From a virus (taxonomy: Duplodnaviria > Caudoviricetes), in IMG/VR virus record IMGVR_UViG_3300027672_000002, positions 1 to 32,150 of that record: 32,150 nt of DNA; one strand, given 5' to 3'. Below the pieces are notes generated by a model. It was not told where the DNA came from. It saw nothing but the letters and a program-made list of their open reading frames with translations, and did not search any database. Shown here in pieces: positions 4,414 through 12,168 of the stretch; within the stretch, counting starts at the first letter, position 1; each line of letters opens with the position of its first letter. The position numbers and the translations under genes were made by a program.

Positions 4414-4563
4414 ATGACAAATAAAGACGCATTCACATATGGTGAAATTATTGGTGAGCTAATGGGTTTAGAAACTTTATACCTTAAGGGTGATGAAGAA
4501 AAACAAATGCTACAAGCCACTATCAGCAAAATGGAATCACTTTTTAATAGTTTAAATAAATAA
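4414..4563 (+). CDS. 49-aa hypothetical protein (not in ORF track)
   Basis: First ATG after promoter B; MTNKDAFTYGEIIGELMGL... Confidence 0.7.
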   Translation: MTNKDAFTYGEIIGELMGLETLYLKGDEEKQMLQATISKMESLFNSLNK

Positions 4564-4566
4564 GAA

Positions 4567-4770
4567 ATGGAATACAGAACGCAAGAACAAGCCATTGAGA
4601 TTTACAAAGAAACCTACGATGGTAATTGGAAAGCAGCAAAAGTAAAGCTAAACGGATATGGATTCCATTACTGGGAATTTATAGATAAAATTGATAGCTA
4701 TCATCAGGAAATGGGGGTTTCAGAAAAATACCGACTTGAAATACTAAGGACATTATCTCATTTGATATGA
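4567..4770 (+). CDS. Hypothetical protein
   Basis: Tightly packed + strand ORF. Confidence 0.65.
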   Translation: MEYRTQEQAIEIYKETYDGNWKAAKVKLNGYGFHYWEFIDKIDSYHQEMGVSEKYRLEILRTLSHLI

Positions 4771-4922
4771 GATTAAGCCGTGAATCCCTTTTATACATAA
4801 GGGAGCAAATAGAATTACACACCGAGATTGACCCAAGCCTTACAGATGTGATTATCACATACCAAATACAAGACACTGGTAAGCCAAAAAAATTTTTACA
4901 TTTATCCATAAAACTAACATAG
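4767..4922 (+). CDS. 51-aa hypothetical protein (not in ORF track)
   Basis: ATGA overlap; MRLSRESLLYIREQIEL...LSIKLT; fills the gap exactly. Confidence 0.65.
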   Translation: MRLSRESLLYIREQIELHTEIDPSLTDVIITYQIQDTGKPKKFLHLSIKLT

Positions 4923-4923
4923 T

Positions 4924-5238
4924 ATGAGTCTAGTAGACGATTTAACAGCAGAATTAATTCGCTTAGAACATCAGTTACAACAATCTGAATATCAATTAGA
5001 ACAGGTTAAACAAGAGTTAATCGAATCCAAGAGACATACCTATGTTGGACAGACTCACGGTTTATACGCTAGTGATGGTGAGCTTACAATAGAATATGGA
5101 GACAACCAATTTGTAGTAATGGCGACTGACCAATTATTTCAAGATTTGCCTGGAATTGTCAACCTATGTTTGACAGAACAAAGTAAAATGCAAGAAGAAA
5201 CATTGCAAAGAATTAAAAATGAGCTAGGAGAATTATGA
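4924..5238 (+). CDS. Hypothetical protein with N-terminal coiled coil
   Basis: 104-aa ORF with ATGA overlap to the exonuclease. Confidence 0.7.
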   Translation: MSLVDDLTAELIRLEHQLQQSEYQLEQVKQELIESKRHTYVGQTHGLYASDGELTIEYGDNQFVVMATDQLFQDLPGIVNLCLTEQSKMQEETLQRIKNELGEL

Positions 5239-5948
5239 TACTTCTGGTAGATGCTGACAGTTTAATATTTGCGAGTTGCTATCAAAAAAGGGAAACACCT
5301 GAAGATGACCCATATCACTCAGACATATCAAAAGCACGTAACAAATTTGATGAGCAGTTTATGAGAATTGTAAATCACTTAGAGGATATGTATTCAATTG
5401 ATAAGGTCATTACGTTTAGCGGATCTAGAGGAAACTTTAGAAAGTTAATATCAAAAAAATACAAAGCAAACAGAAGTTATTCTAATTTACCTCCTTTATT
5501 GAATGAGATGCACGAGTACGTTAAAAAACAATACGATAGCATCTATGGATATGGAGTAGAAACTGACGATATGGTGGCTAGGTATTGGTATAACATCGCT
5601 AAAGACATAGGACGTGACGAGGTTATGATTGTAAGCATAGACAAGGACTACAAACAGTTTCCTTGTCTGATGTACAATTACCACTATAAACACAAAGAGG
5701 TTTACGATATAAGCGAGGAACAGGCTTTGTATAACTTCTACGAGCAGATGATAGCAGGAGACACCGCTGATAATGTGAATTACTTTAAAGGTAAGGGCAA
5801 GAGGTTTGCAGAAAAATATTTTGCTGAATGCCAAACTAAATATCAGTATACTAGAAAGCTATATGAATTGTTTAAAGAAAAATACAAATCAAAAGCAAAA
5901 GAAAAGTATAGCGAATGCTATCACCAATTGAAATTAAGGATTGACTAA
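5235..5948 (+). CDS. 5'-3' exonuclease (FEN/PIN fold, T7 gp6/T4 RNase H-like)
   Basis: LVDADSL, NFRK...YKANR, ETDD, SIDKDYKQ, GDTADNV...GKG. Confidence 0.9.
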   Translation: MILLVDADSLIFASCYQKRETPEDDPYHSDISKARNKFDEQFMRIVNHLEDMYSIDKVITFSGSRGNFRKLISKKYKANRSYSNLPPLLNEMHEYVKKQYDSIYGYGVETDDMVARYWYNIAKDIGRDEVMIVSIDKDYKQFPCLMYNYHYKHKEVYDISEEQALYNFYEQMIAGDTADNVNYFKGKGKRFAEKYFAECQTKYQYTRKLYELFKEKYKSKAKEKYSECYHQLKLRID

Positions 5949-6430
5949 TGAAGAAAAAGAACCCTACACCATTAGAGATAGCTAAGGCTGCTTCTGATGT
6001 TTTTAACATAGATATATTCGATAACCAAAGAGGACATTTTCACGTATATGCAAGAGCTTTGGTATGTTGGATTATGAGAGACAAGTTACAAATGAGATGG
6101 ACATACATTGCGGAATGGTTTCAAGAAAACGGAAAACATATGAATCACTCCACAGCAATGCATCTGGTTAAGATGTACCCCAGCTATAGACAAAAGAATA
6201 TTAAAATACGTAAATTAGAAAAAAGATTCTATTTTACTGAAAACGTGAATTTTGATGAAATTGACAAAATTGAATATCTAGAAAAAAAATACTTTAAACT
6301 AGAGTCAGATTATTTAGAACTAAATAAAAAACTAAAAAATCCTCTGGTAAACTTAGTGCTAGATGTGCCAACAAATAAATCATCAGAAATGAAAAACAGA
6401 ATTAAAATGATAAAAAGTGCTTGGAGCTAA
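5948..6430 (+). CDS. DnaA domain IV-like HTH DNA-binding protein with C-terminal coiled coil
   Basis: VYARALVCWIMRD...IAEWF...NHSTAMH resembles the DnaA_C signature (AR.iam...l...IG..F..RDHTTV.H). Confidence 0.7.
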   Translation: MKKKNPTPLEIAKAASDVFNIDIFDNQRGHFHVYARALVCWIMRDKLQMRWTYIAEWFQENGKHMNHSTAMHLVKMYPSYRQKNIKIRKLEKRFYFTENVNFDEIDKIEYLEKKYFKLESDYLELNKKLKNPLVNLVLDVPTNKSSEMKNRIKMIKSAWS

Positions 6431-6603: not shown

Positions 6604-6729
6604 ATGAAATTTATACCATACGAGTACGATTTAAAAAAGGAATACTTTGAAAAACTCAAAGAGCAACGCAAGGAAAAAAAAGCAAATAAGCTAAGAGCAT
6701 TTGGCACACCTAAGAAAAAAAAGAAATGA
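6604..6729 (+). CDS. 41-aa basic peptide (not in ORF track)
   Basis: MKFIPYEYDLKKEYF...PKKKKK; ATGA overlap with next gene. Confidence 0.55.
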   Translation: MKFIPYEYDLKKEYFEKLKEQRKEKKANKLRAFGTPKKKKK

Positions 6730-7193
6730 TACTAACAACAATTCAAGCGTTCATCTTTATTATTTACATTGCGTTTCTGTATTACAGATTTCGCAAACCA
6801 TTACCGTCAATTTCACAGTCTTGGTATGATTTACCAAAGCCAGTTAACAAACTATTCACTTTGTTCTGTTGGAGCATTGGTATAGCTATGATATTTCAAG
6901 GGGGGAATGCTTGGTTTTTTATGTCGGGTTCTGGTTTGTGCTTTGTAGGGGCTGCAACGTCCTTTCTATCTAAAGGAGCAAAGACAAACATCGTTCATTA
7001 TTTAGGAGCAGCGGTAGGTATTAGCTGCGCCTTGTTTGGTTTATGTTTTCAATATAGTATCTACCTTCCTATGTGGATATTTATATTAGGAACTTCCATA
7101 ATAATCCTATTACCTAAAGTGATTAACAAAATTTGGTTCATTGAGATATTAGCCTTTATTGTTATTGTGATAGGTTTATTTTTAAGACCATAA
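6726..7193 (+). CDS. Multi-pass membrane protein
   Basis: About 5-6 hydrophobic segments; PSISQSWY loop. Confidence 0.75.
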   Translation: MILTTIQAFIFIIYIAFLYYRFRKPLPSISQSWYDLPKPVNKLFTLFCWSIGIAMIFQGGNAWFFMSGSGLCFVGAATSFLSKGAKTNIVHYLGAAVGISCALFGLCFQYSIYLPMWIFILGTSIIILLPKVINKIWFIEILAFIVIVIGLFLRP

Positions 7194-7220
7194 AAACAAA
7201 AAAATTAAATACGTTATATA
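7191..7220 (+). promoter_or_regulatory. Late promoter 1 (putatively read by the phage sigma factor)
   Basis: TAAAAA-N13-TACGTTATATA, 3 nt before ATG 7224. Confidence 0.8.
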
Positions 7221-7223
7221 ATT

Positions 7224-7817
7224 ATGATACAAAAAGTTAAGATTACCGAGATTTTCTCAAATTCCACTAATCCTAGGACGATACAAAAGGATAAGTTTAA
7301 AAAATTATGCAATAGCATAAAAGAATTTCCAGAGATGCTAAAGCTAAGACCAATTGTGGTTAATAGTGAAATGGGTATACTTGGCGGAAATATGAGGTAC
7401 AAGGCTTGTCAAGAAATTGGACTCAAAGAGGTTTACATAATTAAAGCTGAAAACTTTACTGATGATCAGATACAAGAGTTTATAATAAAAGACAATGTCG
7501 GGTTCGGAGAATGGGACTGGGACATTTTAGCAAACACTTGGGATGTTGAAAAGCTAAATGAATGGGGACTTGAAGTTCCAAGCATTGAGGATTTTACTGG
7601 TGTTGAAGAGCAAGAAATAGAATTTAGCGAGTATCTAGACGAAGCTCACAACTATGTTGTTTTACTATTTGACTCAGACGTTGATTGGTTAAGTGCTCAA
7701 ACTCATTTTAACATAAAGTCCGTTCATTCTATGAGAGCAAACGGAAAGCCTTGGTCTAAGGGCATAGGAAGGGTGCTGGATGGTGCTGAATACTTAAAGG
7801 GTATAAAGGATGTCTAA
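7224..7817 (+). CDS. ParB/Srx-like N-terminal domain protein with distinct C-terminal domain
   Basis: NPRTI...LRPIVV...ILGGNMRYKAC...IKDNVGFGEWD. Confidence 0.85.
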   Translation: MIQKVKITEIFSNSTNPRTIQKDKFKKLCNSIKEFPEMLKLRPIVVNSEMGILGGNMRYKACQEIGLKEVYIIKAENFTDDQIQEFIIKDNVGFGEWDWDILANTWDVEKLNEWGLEVPSIEDFTGVEEQEIEFSEYLDEAHNYVVLLFDSDVDWLSAQTHFNIKSVHSMRANGKPWSKGIGRVLDGAEYLKGIKDV

Positions 7818-8526
7818 CATATACATACCCTCTTACAATCGTTCTGAATCTGTCAAGACTTATGAATATTTTGGATGTGGTCAAATCATAGTGCCGAAAA
7901 GTCAAGAAAAGGAATACAAGAAAAGATATGGCAATGCTGTAAAAAGCATACCTGATAGCAGAGACGGCTCTGTTTCTAAAAAAAGAAATGCAATACTAGA
8001 TCTGATAGAAGAAGAACAAGAGGATGGTTATGGATGGATCATAGATGATGACTTAGTAAAAATAAAGAGAAAAAAAGAAGCTAATTACTTAGAGCAAGAA
8101 GAGTCACTAGAGTTATTAGATAAAATACATCTAATGGCAAAAGATATGAAAGCTACTTACGCAGGTGTTGATTATTCACTTGATAATAAAAAAAGAATGG
8201 ACTTTGAACCATTTTCTCTTAAAAAACCAATTTTTGGAGCAACATTAATCTATGCTAAAGATGGGTTAAAATACGACGAGAGATTTAAGATAAACGAAGA
8301 CGTGGAGTTCTGGATACAAAAGCTAAACCTCAACAGAAGGATTTTAAAAGACAACCAATATGCAATGGTGTTCTTTGGTGAAGATGGCGGAAAAGATAGC
8401 GTAATCGGTTACAGCAATGATGACAGAAGGGTATATGCTACTATGCTAAACAATAAATGGGGAAAGAAGATAATGAACTGGAAAAAGACAGGATTTCAAT
8501 TTGACAATCCAATTAAGGGGGTATGA
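7810..8526 (+). CDS. GT-A fold glycosyltransferase 1 (GREB1/TET-associated GT-like)
   Basis: IYIPSYNR, KRNAILD, IIDDD, YDERFKINEDVEFWIQ, GG motifs. Confidence 0.75.
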   Translation: MSNIYIPSYNRSESVKTYEYFGCGQIIVPKSQEKEYKKRYGNAVKSIPDSRDGSVSKKRNAILDLIEEEQEDGYGWIIDDDLVKIKRKKEANYLEQEESLELLDKIHLMAKDMKATYAGVDYSLDNKKRMDFEPFSLKKPIFGATLIYAKDGLKYDERFKINEDVEFWIQKLNLNRRILKDNQYAMVFFGEDGGKDSVIGYSNDDRRVYATMLNNKWGKKIMNWKKTGFQFDNPIKGV

Positions 8527-9266
8527 AAATATATGCACCAAGTTTTAAGAGAGCTAACGGAGTAAAGACTCACAAAATTATTCCAGAAGTAATTTATTGC
8601 GTACACGAATTTGAAGCTGAAGAATACAAAAAACTCGGTTACAATATTCAGGTTATGCCAGATAGCGTAAAAGGTAATATAGCAAGAGTAAGAAATTACA
8701 TACTTGAAAACTACACAAAACAAAAGTGCTTAATTATAGATGATGATATCGAGGCTATTAAAAGGTGGAACTTAAAAGATGGAAAACCTAAGCAAGAAAA
8801 AATAGAAAACATACACGAATGGATTGAGCAATGCTTTAATATGGCTGAAGAAAGTCAAGCAAGACTATGGGGGGTTAATATACTAGGTGACAAAGGAAGC
8901 TATAGAGAATACTCACCAATCAGTTTTACAAATACTGTTTCAGCTTCTTTTATGGGATTTTTAAATAATCAACTTAGATTTGATGAAAGGTTGCCTTTAA
9001 AAGATGATTATGACTATTGCCTACAAAACCTTGACAGATATAGAAAAATACTAAGATTCAACTATGCTTGTCTGGTTAAGAAAGATCACGGAAACTTAGG
9101 GGGGTGTGCTGATTACAGAACAATGAGCAGAGAAAAGGATCAATTAAATTTACTACAAAAGAAATGGGGCAAGAAAATTGTGAAAATAGATACTACTCAA
9201 AGAGGTAAGAAAACAAAAAACTTTGATCTTAACCCCATTATAAAAGCTCCAATAAAAGGAATCTAA
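8523..9266 (+). CDS. GT-A fold glycosyltransferase 2 (GREB1/TET-associated GT-like)
   Basis: IYAPSFKR, VRNYILE, IIDDD, FDERLPLKDDYDYCLQ, GGC..YR, KKWG. Confidence 0.8.
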   Translation: MKIYAPSFKRANGVKTHKIIPEVIYCVHEFEAEEYKKLGYNIQVMPDSVKGNIARVRNYILENYTKQKCLIIDDDIEAIKRWNLKDGKPKQEKIENIHEWIEQCFNMAEESQARLWGVNILGDKGSYREYSPISFTNTVSASFMGFLNNQLRFDERLPLKDDYDYCLQNLDRYRKILRFNYACLVKKDHGNLGGCADYRTMSREKDQLNLLQKKWGKKIVKIDTTQRGKKTKNFDLNPIIKAPIKGI

Positions 9267-9267
9267 T

Positions 9268-9624
9268 ATGAACAAAACCGAACAACATAAAAAAGGAATG
9301 CTCGAAGCGTTAGAGAAATCGCTAGGAGTAGTTACTACTGCTTGTAAGAAGATGGGCGTAGGAAGAACACAGTTTTACCATTGGTTAAAAGAAGATCAGG
9401 AATTTAGGGAACAAGTTGAAGAAATAGAGAACATCGCTTTAGATTTTGCAGAGTCTCAATTGCATAAACAAATTGGAGACGGAAGTACAAGTGCTACTAT
9501 ATTTTACCTAAAAACAAAAGGCAAGAACAGAGGATACATTGAGCGTCAAGAAATAACAGGAGCAGATGGAATGCCTACTAACTTTCAAATAGAAATCATT
9601 GATTCCATTAAAAATAAAGACTAA
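9268..9624 (+). CDS. terS: Terminase small subunit
   Basis: HTH (GVVTTACKKMGVGRTQFYHW), ATIFYLKTKGKNRGY, EITGADG; upstream of TerL. Confidence 0.8.
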   Translation: MNKTEQHKKGMLEALEKSLGVVTTACKKMGVGRTQFYHWLKEDQEFREQVEEIENIALDFAESQLHKQIGDGSTSATIFYLKTKGKNRGYIERQEITGADGMPTNFQIEIIDSIKNKD

Positions 9625-10762
9625 TGTCGTATACAAGCATTTAGTTGAGAACCAAAAAAAGATTGTAGTTGAGCAAGGCGGTACAAGGTCTGGAAAAACC
9701 TATAACATTATACTTTGGATTATATTCGAGTATTGCACAAGGAATAACAATAAGATTATTACGATATGCCGAAAAACCTTTCCTAGTTTAAGAGCTACCG
9801 TATTGCGTGATTTTATGTCTATACTGCAAGGCAATAAAATATATAACGAAAAATACCATAACAAGTCTAATTCGGAATACCACTTATTCGGAAACCTTGT
9901 TGAGTTCATATCCTTAGATCAACCCCAAAAAATTAGAGGACGTAAAAGAGATTTACTATTTGTAAATGAAGCTAACGAACTATATTTTGAGGATTGGCAA
10001 CAATTGCTATTTAGGACTCAAGAAAAAATAATAATAGATTTTAACCCATCTGACGAATACCATTGGATTTATGATAGGGTGATTCCCAGAGAGGACTGTG
10101 CTTTTTTTAAGACGACATACCTTGACAATCCATTTGTTGAGGATTCTATAATACAGGAAATTGAAAGGCTTAGAGATACAGACGATCAATATTGGCAAGT
10201 TTATGGACTTGGCGAAAGGGCGGCTAGTCGTAGTACTATTTTTAAATACTTTGAGGTAAACAGAATACCTGAACAAGCAAATCTTATTGCTTATGGTATG
10301 GATTTTGGATACACTAATGATCCTACTACTTTTGTTGCTGTATACACAGAGGGATACAATTTATATGTGCAAGAGCATCTTTATAGAACTCAGATGACAA
10401 CTCAAGACATTAACGTGTTTTTGAGAGAACAGAATTTATCTAGCAATCCTATTTACGCCGATAGTGCAGAGCCTAGATTAATTAGTGAATTGAGAAGAAT
10501 GGGACATAACATATTGCCTAGTATAAAGGGACGAGACTCTGTTAATGCTGGAATCGATTTACTTAAACGGTACAAGATTCACATAGTTAGTTCTTCAACA
10601 AATGCTATAGCAGAGTTCAGGGCTTACAAATGGAAAGAAGACAAAGCAGGTATGCTGGTAAATATTCCAGAGGATAAAAACAATCATATTATTGACCCTT
10701 GTCGATATGCTACTTATTCTATATTGTCTAGACCCAATTTTGGTAAGTACACTCTGCATTAA
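9599..10762 (+). CDS. terL: Terminase large subunit (PBSX/Terminase_3 type); TTG start
   Basis: QGGTRSGKT, NEANE, DFNP, GMDFGY..DP, ADSAEP, NHIIDP.RYA. Confidence 0.95.
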   Translation: MIPLKIKTNVVYKHLVENQKKIVVEQGGTRSGKTYNIILWIIFEYCTRNNNKIITICRKTFPSLRATVLRDFMSILQGNKIYNEKYHNKSNSEYHLFGNLVEFISLDQPQKIRGRKRDLLFVNEANELYFEDWQQLLFRTQEKIIIDFNPSDEYHWIYDRVIPREDCAFFKTTYLDNPFVEDSIIQEIERLRDTDDQYWQVYGLGERAASRSTIFKYFEVNRIPEQANLIAYGMDFGYTNDPTTFVAVYTEGYNLYVQEHLYRTQMTTQDINVFLREQNLSSNPIYADSAEPRLISELRRMGHNILPSIKGRDSVNAGIDLLKRYKIHIVSSSTNAIAEFRAYKWKEDKAGMLVNIPEDKNNHIIDPCRYATYSILSRPNFGKYTLH

Positions 10763-11431: not shown

Positions 11432-12082
11432 ATGGCAATTAAAATTGAAATACCAACATCGTTAAAAGATATAACCCTTAGACAATACAAAAAATTTCTA
11501 AAGGCTGAACAAATGGAAAAAGAGGAAAGGCTTTTAAATGCAAAGCTAATCCAGATCTTTTGCAATGTTGAGATAAAGGACGTAATGCTATTACAGGTTA
11601 ATGATGCAGAAGACATAGCAAAAATGATATCCGACATATTTGATCAAAAACCTAAATTAGTAACAAGGTTTAAATTAAACAATATTGACTATGGATTTCA
11701 ACCTCAATTAGACGATTTAACATTAGGTGAGTATATAGACCTAGACACCTTCATAGGTGATTGGGAAAATATGGAAAAGGCAATGAACGTTCTATACAGA
11801 CCAGTTATTGTAAAGATGAAAGAAAAATACTCTATTGACAAGTACGTTATTGAAAACGATGATTTACTTCTGGATATGCCTATGGATGCAGTGATGTCCT
11901 CAATTTTTTTTTTGTGGAATTTAGGGCTAGACTTAGCGAGAACTATGACGAACTCTTTGGACAATCAGGAAAAGATAGCTTTGACTCAGCATCTCAATTC
12001 TCAGCAAAGTGGGGTTGGTATCAATCAATTTACGGACTCGCTCAAGGCGATGTTACAAGATTTGAAAATATCACTGAATTGA
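11432..12082 (+). CDS. Putative tail assembly chaperone (0-frame product)
   Basis: Contains a T10 slippery run at 11904-11913; DLTLGEYIDLD motif; heads the tail operon. Confidence 0.6.
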   Translation: MAIKIEIPTSLKDITLRQYKKFLKAEQMEKEERLLNAKLIQIFCNVEIKDVMLLQVNDAEDIAKMISDIFDQKPKLVTRFKLNNIDYGFQPQLDDLTLGEYIDLDTFIGDWENMEKAMNVLYRPVIVKMKEKYSIDKYVIENDDLLLDMPMDAVMSSIFFLWNLGLDLARTMTNSLDNQEKIALTQHLNSQQSGVGINQFTDSLKAMLQDLKISLN

Positions 12083-12168
12083 ATCTACACACCTGTCTTA
12101 TGATGTTGGCCTTTATGAAAGAAAAAAACGAGTTAGAAGCAAAACAAATTAAAAAGAATTTCAAATGA
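11904..12168 (+). CDS. -1 frameshift extension of 11432 ORF (gpGT-like)
   Basis: T-TTT-TTT heptamer; -1 frame open to 12168 (FVEFRARL...KWGWYQSIY); ATGA-coupled to next gene. Confidence 0.7.

Follow-up and report, generated by a model that had tools for sequence, protein, structure and literature searches.

A ParB-like protein whose C-terminal domain (the tail) is paired with a TAGT-family glycosyltransferase (GT) forms a cassette that is real, widespread, and unexplained. We describe it from IMG/VR record IMGVR_UViG_3300027672_000002, a complete tailed-phage genome of 32,150 bp (CheckV 100, with a 127-bp terminal repeat) that was analyzed over its whole length and is called the window below. 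There, ParB is followed by two glycosyltransferases, GT1 and GT2, and by the terminase subunits TerS and TerL. Every one of the 116 loci that carry this tail, counting duplicates, contains a TAGT, and a TET dioxygenase occurs in none of them. Moreover, a dimer of the tail is predicted to bind GT2. Phage DNA is probably the target, and we propose, with a confidence just short of even, that ParB tethers GT2 to late phage DNA, where GT2 would glycosylate an unmodified base and GT1 would add a second sugar. The features of the cassette and its neighbors are as follows.

7224-7817, + strand: ParB
7224-7568, + strand: ParB N-terminal nucleotide-binding domain, without helix-turn-helix (HTH) (PF02195; Foldseek match to ParB/Noc)
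7614-7814, + strand: ParB C-terminal domain, unnamed, a GT-docking dimer as predicted from complex modeling
7810-8526, + strand: GT1, TAGT-family GT-A glycosyltransferase (PF20691, 52.9 bits; 8-nt overlap with ParB)
8523-9266, + strand: GT2, TAGT-family GT-A glycosyltransferase (PF20691, 59.2 bits; ATGA overlap with GT1)
9268-9624, + strand: TerS, small terminase subunit (PHROG 309, E 2e-8; 1-nt gap after GT2)
9599-10762, + strand: TerL, large terminase subunit (Pfam Terminase_3/Terminase_3C; 26-nt overlap with TerS if a TTG start is used)

Composition of the cassette across phages

GT2 is the constant partner of the tail; GT1 is optional, and in some units a small methyltransferase takes its place. 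Among 82 de-duplicated units, 39 carry GT1 and GT2, 36 carry GT2, 4 carry a small S-adenosylmethionine (SAM) methyltransferase with GT2, and 3 are cut short; GT2 is present in 79/82, the remaining 3 being those cut short. By the class rule, GT1 occurs in 39/82 units and is never intact without GT2, although the locus collection was not queried with GT1, and GT1-only loci could be under-sampled. In bacterial genome contigs, 21/24 tail loci include GT2, and of the others 2 are cut by contig ends and 1 is a fragment. Cultured carriers are Clostridium phages CS266P2 and CS266P4, Streptococcus prophage Javan291 and, distantly, Microbacterium cluster EC phages.

No third gene and no common virion protein appears to travel with the cassette, and DNA is what all carriers have in common, because ParB and GT were the sole families common to all 18 genomes compared (15 near-complete records, the window itself, and stretches of about 36 kb from Javan291 and from CS266P4). 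No other family occurred in more than 3/9 unrelated phages (E 1e-5), though a third gene too divergent for BLAST could escape. Terminase linkage was judged from gene maps and Pfam; terminase profiles derived from the window matched 48/82 units, and many terminases were of other types.

Accessory genes, namely, the small SAM methyltransferase and a UDP-glucose-dehydrogenase-like gene found in the L370 cassette, suit glycan building. The order ParB - GT - short UDP-glucose-dehydrogenase-like gene is seen both there (L370:4593-7534, a Bacteroidia metagenome-assembled genome, or MAG) and in gp88-90 of Microbacterium phage Gina (L195:5162-7361), and the dehydrogenase-like gene suggests a uronic-acid donor in some variants. 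We note other surroundings as well. In Victivallaceae (L365, L366, and L368, about 4500-5990), the ParB tail, under a divergent head, and GT2 lie amid genes that are not of phage type, such as an AraC regulator, an ADP-ribosylglycohydrolase, and an enolase. At L367:2327-5894 two cassettes stand in tandem, with a second ParB and two Mom genes immediately after the pair, and in Roseibacillus (L358:4581-7981) the genes after the pair encode a TerS-like protein and a protein with a GmrSD N-terminal domain.

The ParB tail and its predicted docking of GT2

The window ParB matches Pfam only at ParB_N (PF02195, residues 2-92), within a head of about residues 1-115 that Foldseek matches to ParB/Noc (E 6e-6) and that conserves G55 (82/82 rows), N16 (78), N91 (77), and R58 (70). 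The protein does not belong to a partitioning ParABS system: it has no HTH, and no ParA was found among the 45 open reading frames (ORFs) of the window by Pfam or PHROGs. Its architecture of head, linker, and C-terminal domain without HTH is that of the ParB proteins on which thymine dioxygenases depend. The head may load ParB onto replicated DNA as a clamp, because its fold matches ParB/Noc.

The tail is a 67-residue domain (residues 131-197) with no Pfam match, and an ESM Atlas search with it returned unnamed viral clusters only. It forms 783 clusters at 50% identity, and its mean identity to the window is 56%, versus 29% for the head. Predicted as a monomer, the tail is poorly folded. Predicted as a dimer with GT2, it gave a complex score of 0.88, versus 0.00 for the best of 3 controls, and the runs had at least 89% contact agreement and a partner predicted local distance difference test (pLDDT) score of at least 85. 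The mark for such scores is reached by 116/157 solved complexes and 2/215 mismatched pairs, counts that are only a rough guide for tail and GT2. The predicted interface joins invariant tail residues to GT2 segments 99-111, 123-136, 167-175, 213-217, and 242-247. GT1 may dock on the other face of the tail dimer, because it keeps 16/47 interface residues, versus 3-7 in TET-linked TAGTs, though GT1 is closer kin anyway.

Two TAGT-family glycosyltransferases

TAGT was reportedly defined by Iyer et al. in 2013. GT1 and GT2 both exceed the curated TAGT cutoff (PF20691, 27.5 bits), and no other GT family matched. They are 28% identical over 224 columns, and each keeps the R...DDD...EDY/F motif of the family, as R11, D79-D81, and E163-D164 in GT1 and as R10, D73-D75, and K160-D-D-Y-D164 in GT2. 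The latter is a KDDYD variant found in 8/90 rows of the GT2 alignment; KEDYD is found in 65/90. The GT2 model (pLDDT 88.6) has a GT-A (GT2-like) fold, and its fold matches are all GT-A, with a best VIA Z of 12.8 (root mean square deviation 4.2, 204 aligned) and the teichoic-acid glycosyltransferases TarS and TarP among them. The top Foldseek match was AvpGT, a nucleoside glycosyltransferase (E 2e-5, template modeling score 0.52). A PDB sequence search with GT2 found nothing below E 0.19 and no solved relative. On a FastTree tree of 69 TAGTs, left from 171 sequences after redundancy removal, a GT1 clade (0.997) and a GT2-like clade (0.924) nest with TET- and thymidylate synthase-linked TAGTs (0.956).

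Search for an enzyme that makes the acceptor

No gene for a pre-modified base was found, and for that reason the GTs would act on ordinary DNA. No TET, thymidylate synthase, polymerase, or sugar-nucleotide enzyme was recognized in the 45 window ORFs by Pfam and PHROGs or in 25 by NCBIfam. No methylase was found in the window, where PHROGs assigns its "methyltransferase" labels to the head of ParB and to the head protease. Pfam and a local profile gave no C5 methylase, Pfam gave no radical-SAM match, and no GT-B occurs among the 45 ORFs. A TET profile built from relatives reached a best E of 1.6 against the six frames of the window, and when the relatives' TET, Mom, ABC-GNAT, methylase, and 3'-phosphoadenosine-5'-phosphosulfate (PAPS) reductase profiles were run against those frames, the ParB head alone was matched. 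Beyond the window, TET was absent from 39/39 related cassette records, of which 15 had a completeness of 90% or more, with TET controls detected in 4/4, and thymidylate synthase (PF00303) was absent from 16/16 near-complete records, with controls detected. Moreover, no TET exceeded the cutoff in 23 bacterial genomes or MAGs with the tail, which span several phyla and are of unstated completeness; one weak, stop-interrupted match was seen among them. In L002, a related locus, the GTs are separated by a C5-methylase-like gene. The window locus is not a TET/5mYOX-GT hypermodification cluster, being without a TET/JBP dioxygenase and a C5 methylase, and it is not a pre-replicative hydroxymethylcytosine (hmC) or hydroxymethyluracil glycosylation system of the T-even type, being without thymidylate synthase, polymerase, and priming GT-B.

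An acceptor could still be made out of sight, with the GTs acting on a conventional hydroxylated base of phage DNA whose maker escapes recognition, be it a divergent oxidase of phage or host, a radical-SAM enzyme, or a TET phage in co-infection, but we judge this unlikely. The nearest TAGT relatives are TET and thymidylate synthase linked, and about 10 small window ORFs are unannotated, but no third gene is common to the 18 carrier genomes. The available text of PMC13229309 has thousands of 5mYOX-like contigs missed by Pfam TET/JBP, and that of PMC13390438 has glucosyl-hmC in Krischvirus SAP with no identified genes. The TET searches here, by contrast, were negative by both Pfam and the local profile in the window and below the cutoff in the 23 host genomes, and the radical-SAM search of the window was negative as well.

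An exchangeable slot between ParB and TerS

The ParB-TerS interval is, to judge from gene content, a slot for swappable DNA-modification cassettes, because in close relatives this ParB head is joined to other tails, and each of them goes with a different enzyme. In 80 loci with the nearest TerL, the interval holds TET with or without GTs in 22, and its other occupants are Mom, ABC-GNAT, N6/N4-methylase fusions, PAPS reductase, other TAGTs, or nothing; 7-deazaguanine-pathway genes (PTPS/FolE) also occur there among TerL relatives. Clustering the tails of 123 ParB proteins gave 16 groups that track the partner enzyme, while the head stays similar. The largest cluster is accompanied by GT1/GT2 in 44/45 cases and the next by TET in 17/21; others go with ABC-GNAT (8/8), Mom (7/7 and 2/2), and IbrA-like enzymes (6/6 and 3/3). 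Methylases are fused to ParB in place of the tail. The simplest reading is that all cassettes in the slot act on phage DNA late in infection.

A first-pass annotation of this locus, made by a model, had described the GTs as diverged paralogues with intact motifs in a genome without an acceptor-making enzyme. The identity and the R/DDD/ED-type motifs agree with the former, and Pfam, PHROGs, NCBIfam, and the local profiles bear out the latter. It had suggested a fold check and a survey of loci with and without TET or methylase, and it named grouping with surface-polysaccharide enzymes or a cryptic hydroxylase or methylase as findings that would overturn it. Both GTs proved to be TAGTs, the GT2 model is GT-A, the survey found all 39 tail-GT2 records free of TET, and neither the profiles nor the 18-genome comparison found such an enzyme travelling with the cassette. 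Its cassette without a recognizable acceptor-maker stands, and what it missed was the GT-specific ParB tail and the swappable slot.

Several occupants of the slot are worth recording. G008 has two cassette alleles (L212:55-2121 and L213:10258-11573) with the head region 88% and TerS 95% identical and with different tails and GTs, which may have arisen by crossing-over within the ParB linker or by chimeric assembly. Elsewhere the slot holds a TAGT with UDP-galactopyranose mutase (L119:4364-6293); a short-chain dehydrogenase/reductase with a cupin, a PAPS reductase, and a second ParB (L054:3529-6662); or an ABC ATPase with a GNAT and a formyltransferase (L103:2826-4600). The TAGTs of Aeh1 (L199:5695-6894) and Vibrio phage 1.076.O (L200:6534-7703) are about 100 residues longer N-terminally, possibly through a fused partner domain, and are about 54% identical to a solo TAGT from the window's phage family.

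Proposed mechanism and its alternatives

How ParB, GT2, and GT1 might work together is pictured as follows. A late promoter would switch on ParB, the GTs, and the terminase together, ParB dimers would load onto replicated phage DNA, and the ParB tail would hold GT2, which would move a host nucleotide-sugar onto an unmodified base. The sugar would go onto a base nitrogen; the best candidate is the exocyclic amine of A or C, from which it would project into the major groove, where methyl and Mom marks also lie. GT1 would then add a second sugar, or the small methyltransferase would cap the first, as the gene patterns suggest. We favor the order GT2 then GT1 because GT2 is constant and GT1 optional, which matches the downstream-GT-first order in TET clusters. 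The role may be to shield packaged DNA from host nucleases. The first-pass annotation had likewise envisaged an uncharacterized modification with sequential transfer of two sugars; the lack of an acceptor-maker and the TAGT family point to the former, and the constant GT2 and optional GT1 are consistent with the latter. A broader version, in which GT2 needs no pre-modified base and puts sugar straight onto a canonical base, creating a new class of glycosylated nucleoside, and in which ParB is a general DNA-loading chassis with exchangeable enzyme-docking tails, is plausible but held with somewhat less than even confidence.

Several points weigh against direct glycosylation of a base by a ParB-tethered GT2. 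TAGT-type phage reactions described in the available parts of the literature use a hydroxyl acceptor (hmC or its sugar), and we found no precedent in the literature for direct base glycosylation by the TAGT family. Both the activity and the modified nucleoside are predictions from gene content. The fold matches of GT2 are generic GT2-like folds that give no pointer to the acceptor, the sister grouping of GT1 and GT2 on the TAGT tree is weak (0.674), and the median charge per 100 residues is +1.2 for the GT1 family and +2.4 for the GT2 family, which are thus less basic than TET-linked TAGTs (+5.4). Conservation of the predicted GT2 interface is 0.64, versus 0.61 elsewhere in GT2, and in the TET system, as far as the available text of PMC13229309 goes, ParB and enzyme formed no stable complex in vitro and mutations of the nucleoside triphosphate site did not matter. 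Finally, restriction-like sites are scarce in the window: CATG occurs 0 times versus 93 expected, CCGG once versus 18, and GAATTC 0 times; ACTAGT and GGWCC are absent, CCWGG and AAGCTT are rare, and GATC is at 45% of expectation. We considered site avoidance as evidence against modification and rejected it, since TET carriers avoid CATG equally.

GATC retention was considered as a sign of DNA protection. On a first TerL tree (FastTree), GATC was retained by 27/33 GT1+GT2 carriers, 0/16 TET carriers, and 0/9 methylase carriers, and with more loci and corrected classes in the core family the counts were 7/11 versus 29/91 (Fisher p 0.049, unadjusted). Retention fails correction for kinship (exonuclease-tree pairs, n = 3, p 1), a few class labels being wrong, and GATC is not among the top 4-mers in a kinship-corrected comparison that used earlier merged class labels. 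Host differences can explain the pattern. Within the core family, methylase-cassette phages keep CATG in 6/7 and GATC in 0/7, and TET-cassette phages keep GATC in 0/16, which may reflect methylase specificity or host clades.

The GTs might instead glycosylate protein (virion subunits, the terminase, ParB, or a host protein), with GT2 priming and GT1 extending, and to this too we give a small probability. GREB1, a TAGT relative, is reported to be a protein O-GlcNAc transferase in the available text of PMC7968844, a further point against a DNA target; the operon is late, and the GTs are only moderately basic. Mycobacteriophage capsids and tails are glycosylated by clusters of GT and O-methyltransferase (PMC12363180 and PMC4351075, each available in part), but Che8 gp108-110 and Corndog gp36-38 match GT2/GT25 or nothing, with PF20691 in 0/6. 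Moreover, the carriers have no common virion protein and have unrelated terminase and portal types, and the other recognizable slot occupants are DNA-modification families or accessory enzymes. Virion-protein glycosylation, which the first-pass annotation had offered as its other option, is less supported on these grounds, with no common virion family in 9 unrelated carriers and with Che8 and Corndog GTs that are not TAGTs.

Sugar might also go onto DNA but not onto a base, at the 3'-OH or 5'-phosphate of nicks or of ends cut by the terminase, or at a backbone phosphate, which we regard as quite improbable. GT2-fold enzymes use phosphate acceptors too. Coupling to the terminase genes is tight, but methylase, TET, and Mom cassettes adjoin the terminase as well, and position does not single out the ends. 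The top Foldseek match is to a nucleoside GT, but that hit scores weakly, level with many GT2 folds, and a clamp-like ParB would suit internal sites. Least probable of all is that the acceptor is a tRNA, a small metabolite, or a cell-surface polymer or that the GT pair is a defunct relic of a TET cassette: the fold matches include TarS/TarP, but phage DNA GTs of proven activity likewise have TarP as their top PDB match in the available text of Pyle et al. (bioRxiv 10.1101/2023.12.21.572611), and the chromosomal copies L365, L366, and L368 lie outside obvious prophages, but the catalytic motifs are invariant in 90 GT2 rows, the tail fills 783 clusters, and the cassette is not a TET deletion because it has a tail type of its own, distinct from TET-type tails.

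Relation to known systems

The system resembles TET-GT and ParB-dioxygenase cassettes but belongs to neither because an oxidase is lacking. In the available text of O'Toole et al. 2026 (PMC13229309), phage thymine dioxygenases are activated on double-stranded DNA by a ParB with a similar architecture, which prefers its cognate partner and requires both head and tail. That pair, 5mYOX176/ParB176, shares with the window an orphan ParB without HTH, cognate enzyme pairing, and GT, ParB, and terminase neighbors, and relatives of the window carry a ParB-dioxygenase cassette in the same slot. The window differs in that it has no dioxygenase and a tail of another type, predicted to bind the GT itself. 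Subclass I of Pyle et al., so far as the text is available, is alike in its GT-A fold, R...DDD...EDY/F motif, two GTs, and downstream priming. The clusters described there, however, need a C5 methylase and TET for 5-hydroxymethylcytosine, and two first-position GTs are GT8-like, whereas both window GTs are TAGT paralogues and nothing makes hmC. The same text lists ParB and terminase as GT neighbors and puts about 65% of phage GT contigs without a TET or thymidylate synthase partner. Solitary TAGTs are counted in 288/753 GT-bearing phage genomes, with novel transferases suspected, in the available part of PMC13216743.

Other systems share single features. The T2/T6 beta-glucosyl-HMC-alpha-glucosyltransferase (PF20691, PHROG 842) is a TAGT that adds a second sugar, the role we propose for GT1 (PMC13216743 and PMC13390438, in the parts available), but T-even phages produce hmC ahead of replication and rely on a GT-B for priming, and the window has neither. 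Virion glycosylation in Che8 and Corndog is alike in using several GTs and an O-methyltransferase, those of Corndog lying among head genes (Freeman et al. 2023, per the available text of PMC12363180), but the GTs in question fall outside PF20691, and no ParB adjoins them. In Microbacterium cluster EC (PMC7302621, available in part), Gina gp88-90 encode ParB, a GT 27% identical to GT2, and a UDP-glucose dehydrogenase, and the Gina ParB tail weakly matches the window tail profile (12.5 bits); it differs in being a distant homologue with a single GT at the locus and its own donor enzyme. We found no description of a TET-less ParB-TAGT cassette or of its tail in the literature searched, although Iyer et al. 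2013 and the supplements of PMC13229309 and Pyle et al. fell outside the search and may list such loci. PMC13326640 mentions neither ParB nor TAGT, and the available parts of PMC12704722, PMC7468147, and PMC12373910 do not describe the cassette. New here are the definition of the predicted docking tail, the correspondence of tails and enzymes throughout a phage family, the pattern of constant GT2 and optional GT1, and the whole-genome test for a third gene.

The locus turns the open question of what solitary phage GTs target into a two- or three-gene experiment, in which a GT expressed by itself might fail for want of the cognate ParB tail that it probably requires. Should a canonical base prove to be the acceptor, the result would be a new DNA chemistry, a new anti-restriction route, and possibly a DNA-labelling tool, and a pair of genes would be enough for genome hypermodification in hosts from many phyla. 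Tail-enzyme pairing would also give a structural explanation for the cognate specificity of ParB-dependent dioxygenases.

The late operon and the rest of the window

All recognized genes of the window lie on the + strand, and the coordinates listed above support the earlier proposal of one operon, ParB-GT1-GT2-TerS-TerL, with overlapping or abutting genes. Its late timing, also proposed before, is suggested by a candidate promoter motif that occurs before late genes. Two further features bear on this.

7210-7218, + strand: predicted late-promoter conserved box TACGTTATA, 5 nt ahead of the ParB start codon
3082-3579, + strand: ECF-like (extracytoplasmic function) sigma factor (weak NCBIfam matches, far under the cutoff)

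The box follows an A-rich run a few bases before the starts of late or structural genes at 7210, 11418, 18581, 19381, and 22157; these 5 exact copies compare with 0.37 expected, and 0/100 shuffles reach 5. ACGTTAT lies upstream of ParB in 52/113 de-duplicated related loci of all cassette types. A sigma-70 promoter scan of the window found 18 sites versus 20 expected. The phage sigma candidate, with NCBIfam matches to SigM (E 2e-4) and to GFO_1088-family ECF sigma (E 6e-4), likely reads the predicted late promoter.

The window sequence is held by marine metagenomes, with no RNA dataset listed among the holders, and low GC together with the weak ECF-sigma match suggests a Bacteroidota host. An assembly artifact was considered for the cassette and rejected, as contigs from two other studies span 7224-9393 and 7852-9520 with zero differences to the window. 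Ahead of the cassette, a hydrophobic 155-amino-acid ORF (6726-7193) is absent from 17/17 other carrier genomes and is skipped by one matching contig; it lies outside the cassette. In the tail region, overlapping ORFs of 216 and 84 amino acids (11432-12168) have a layout that resembles a frameshifted tail-chaperone pair.

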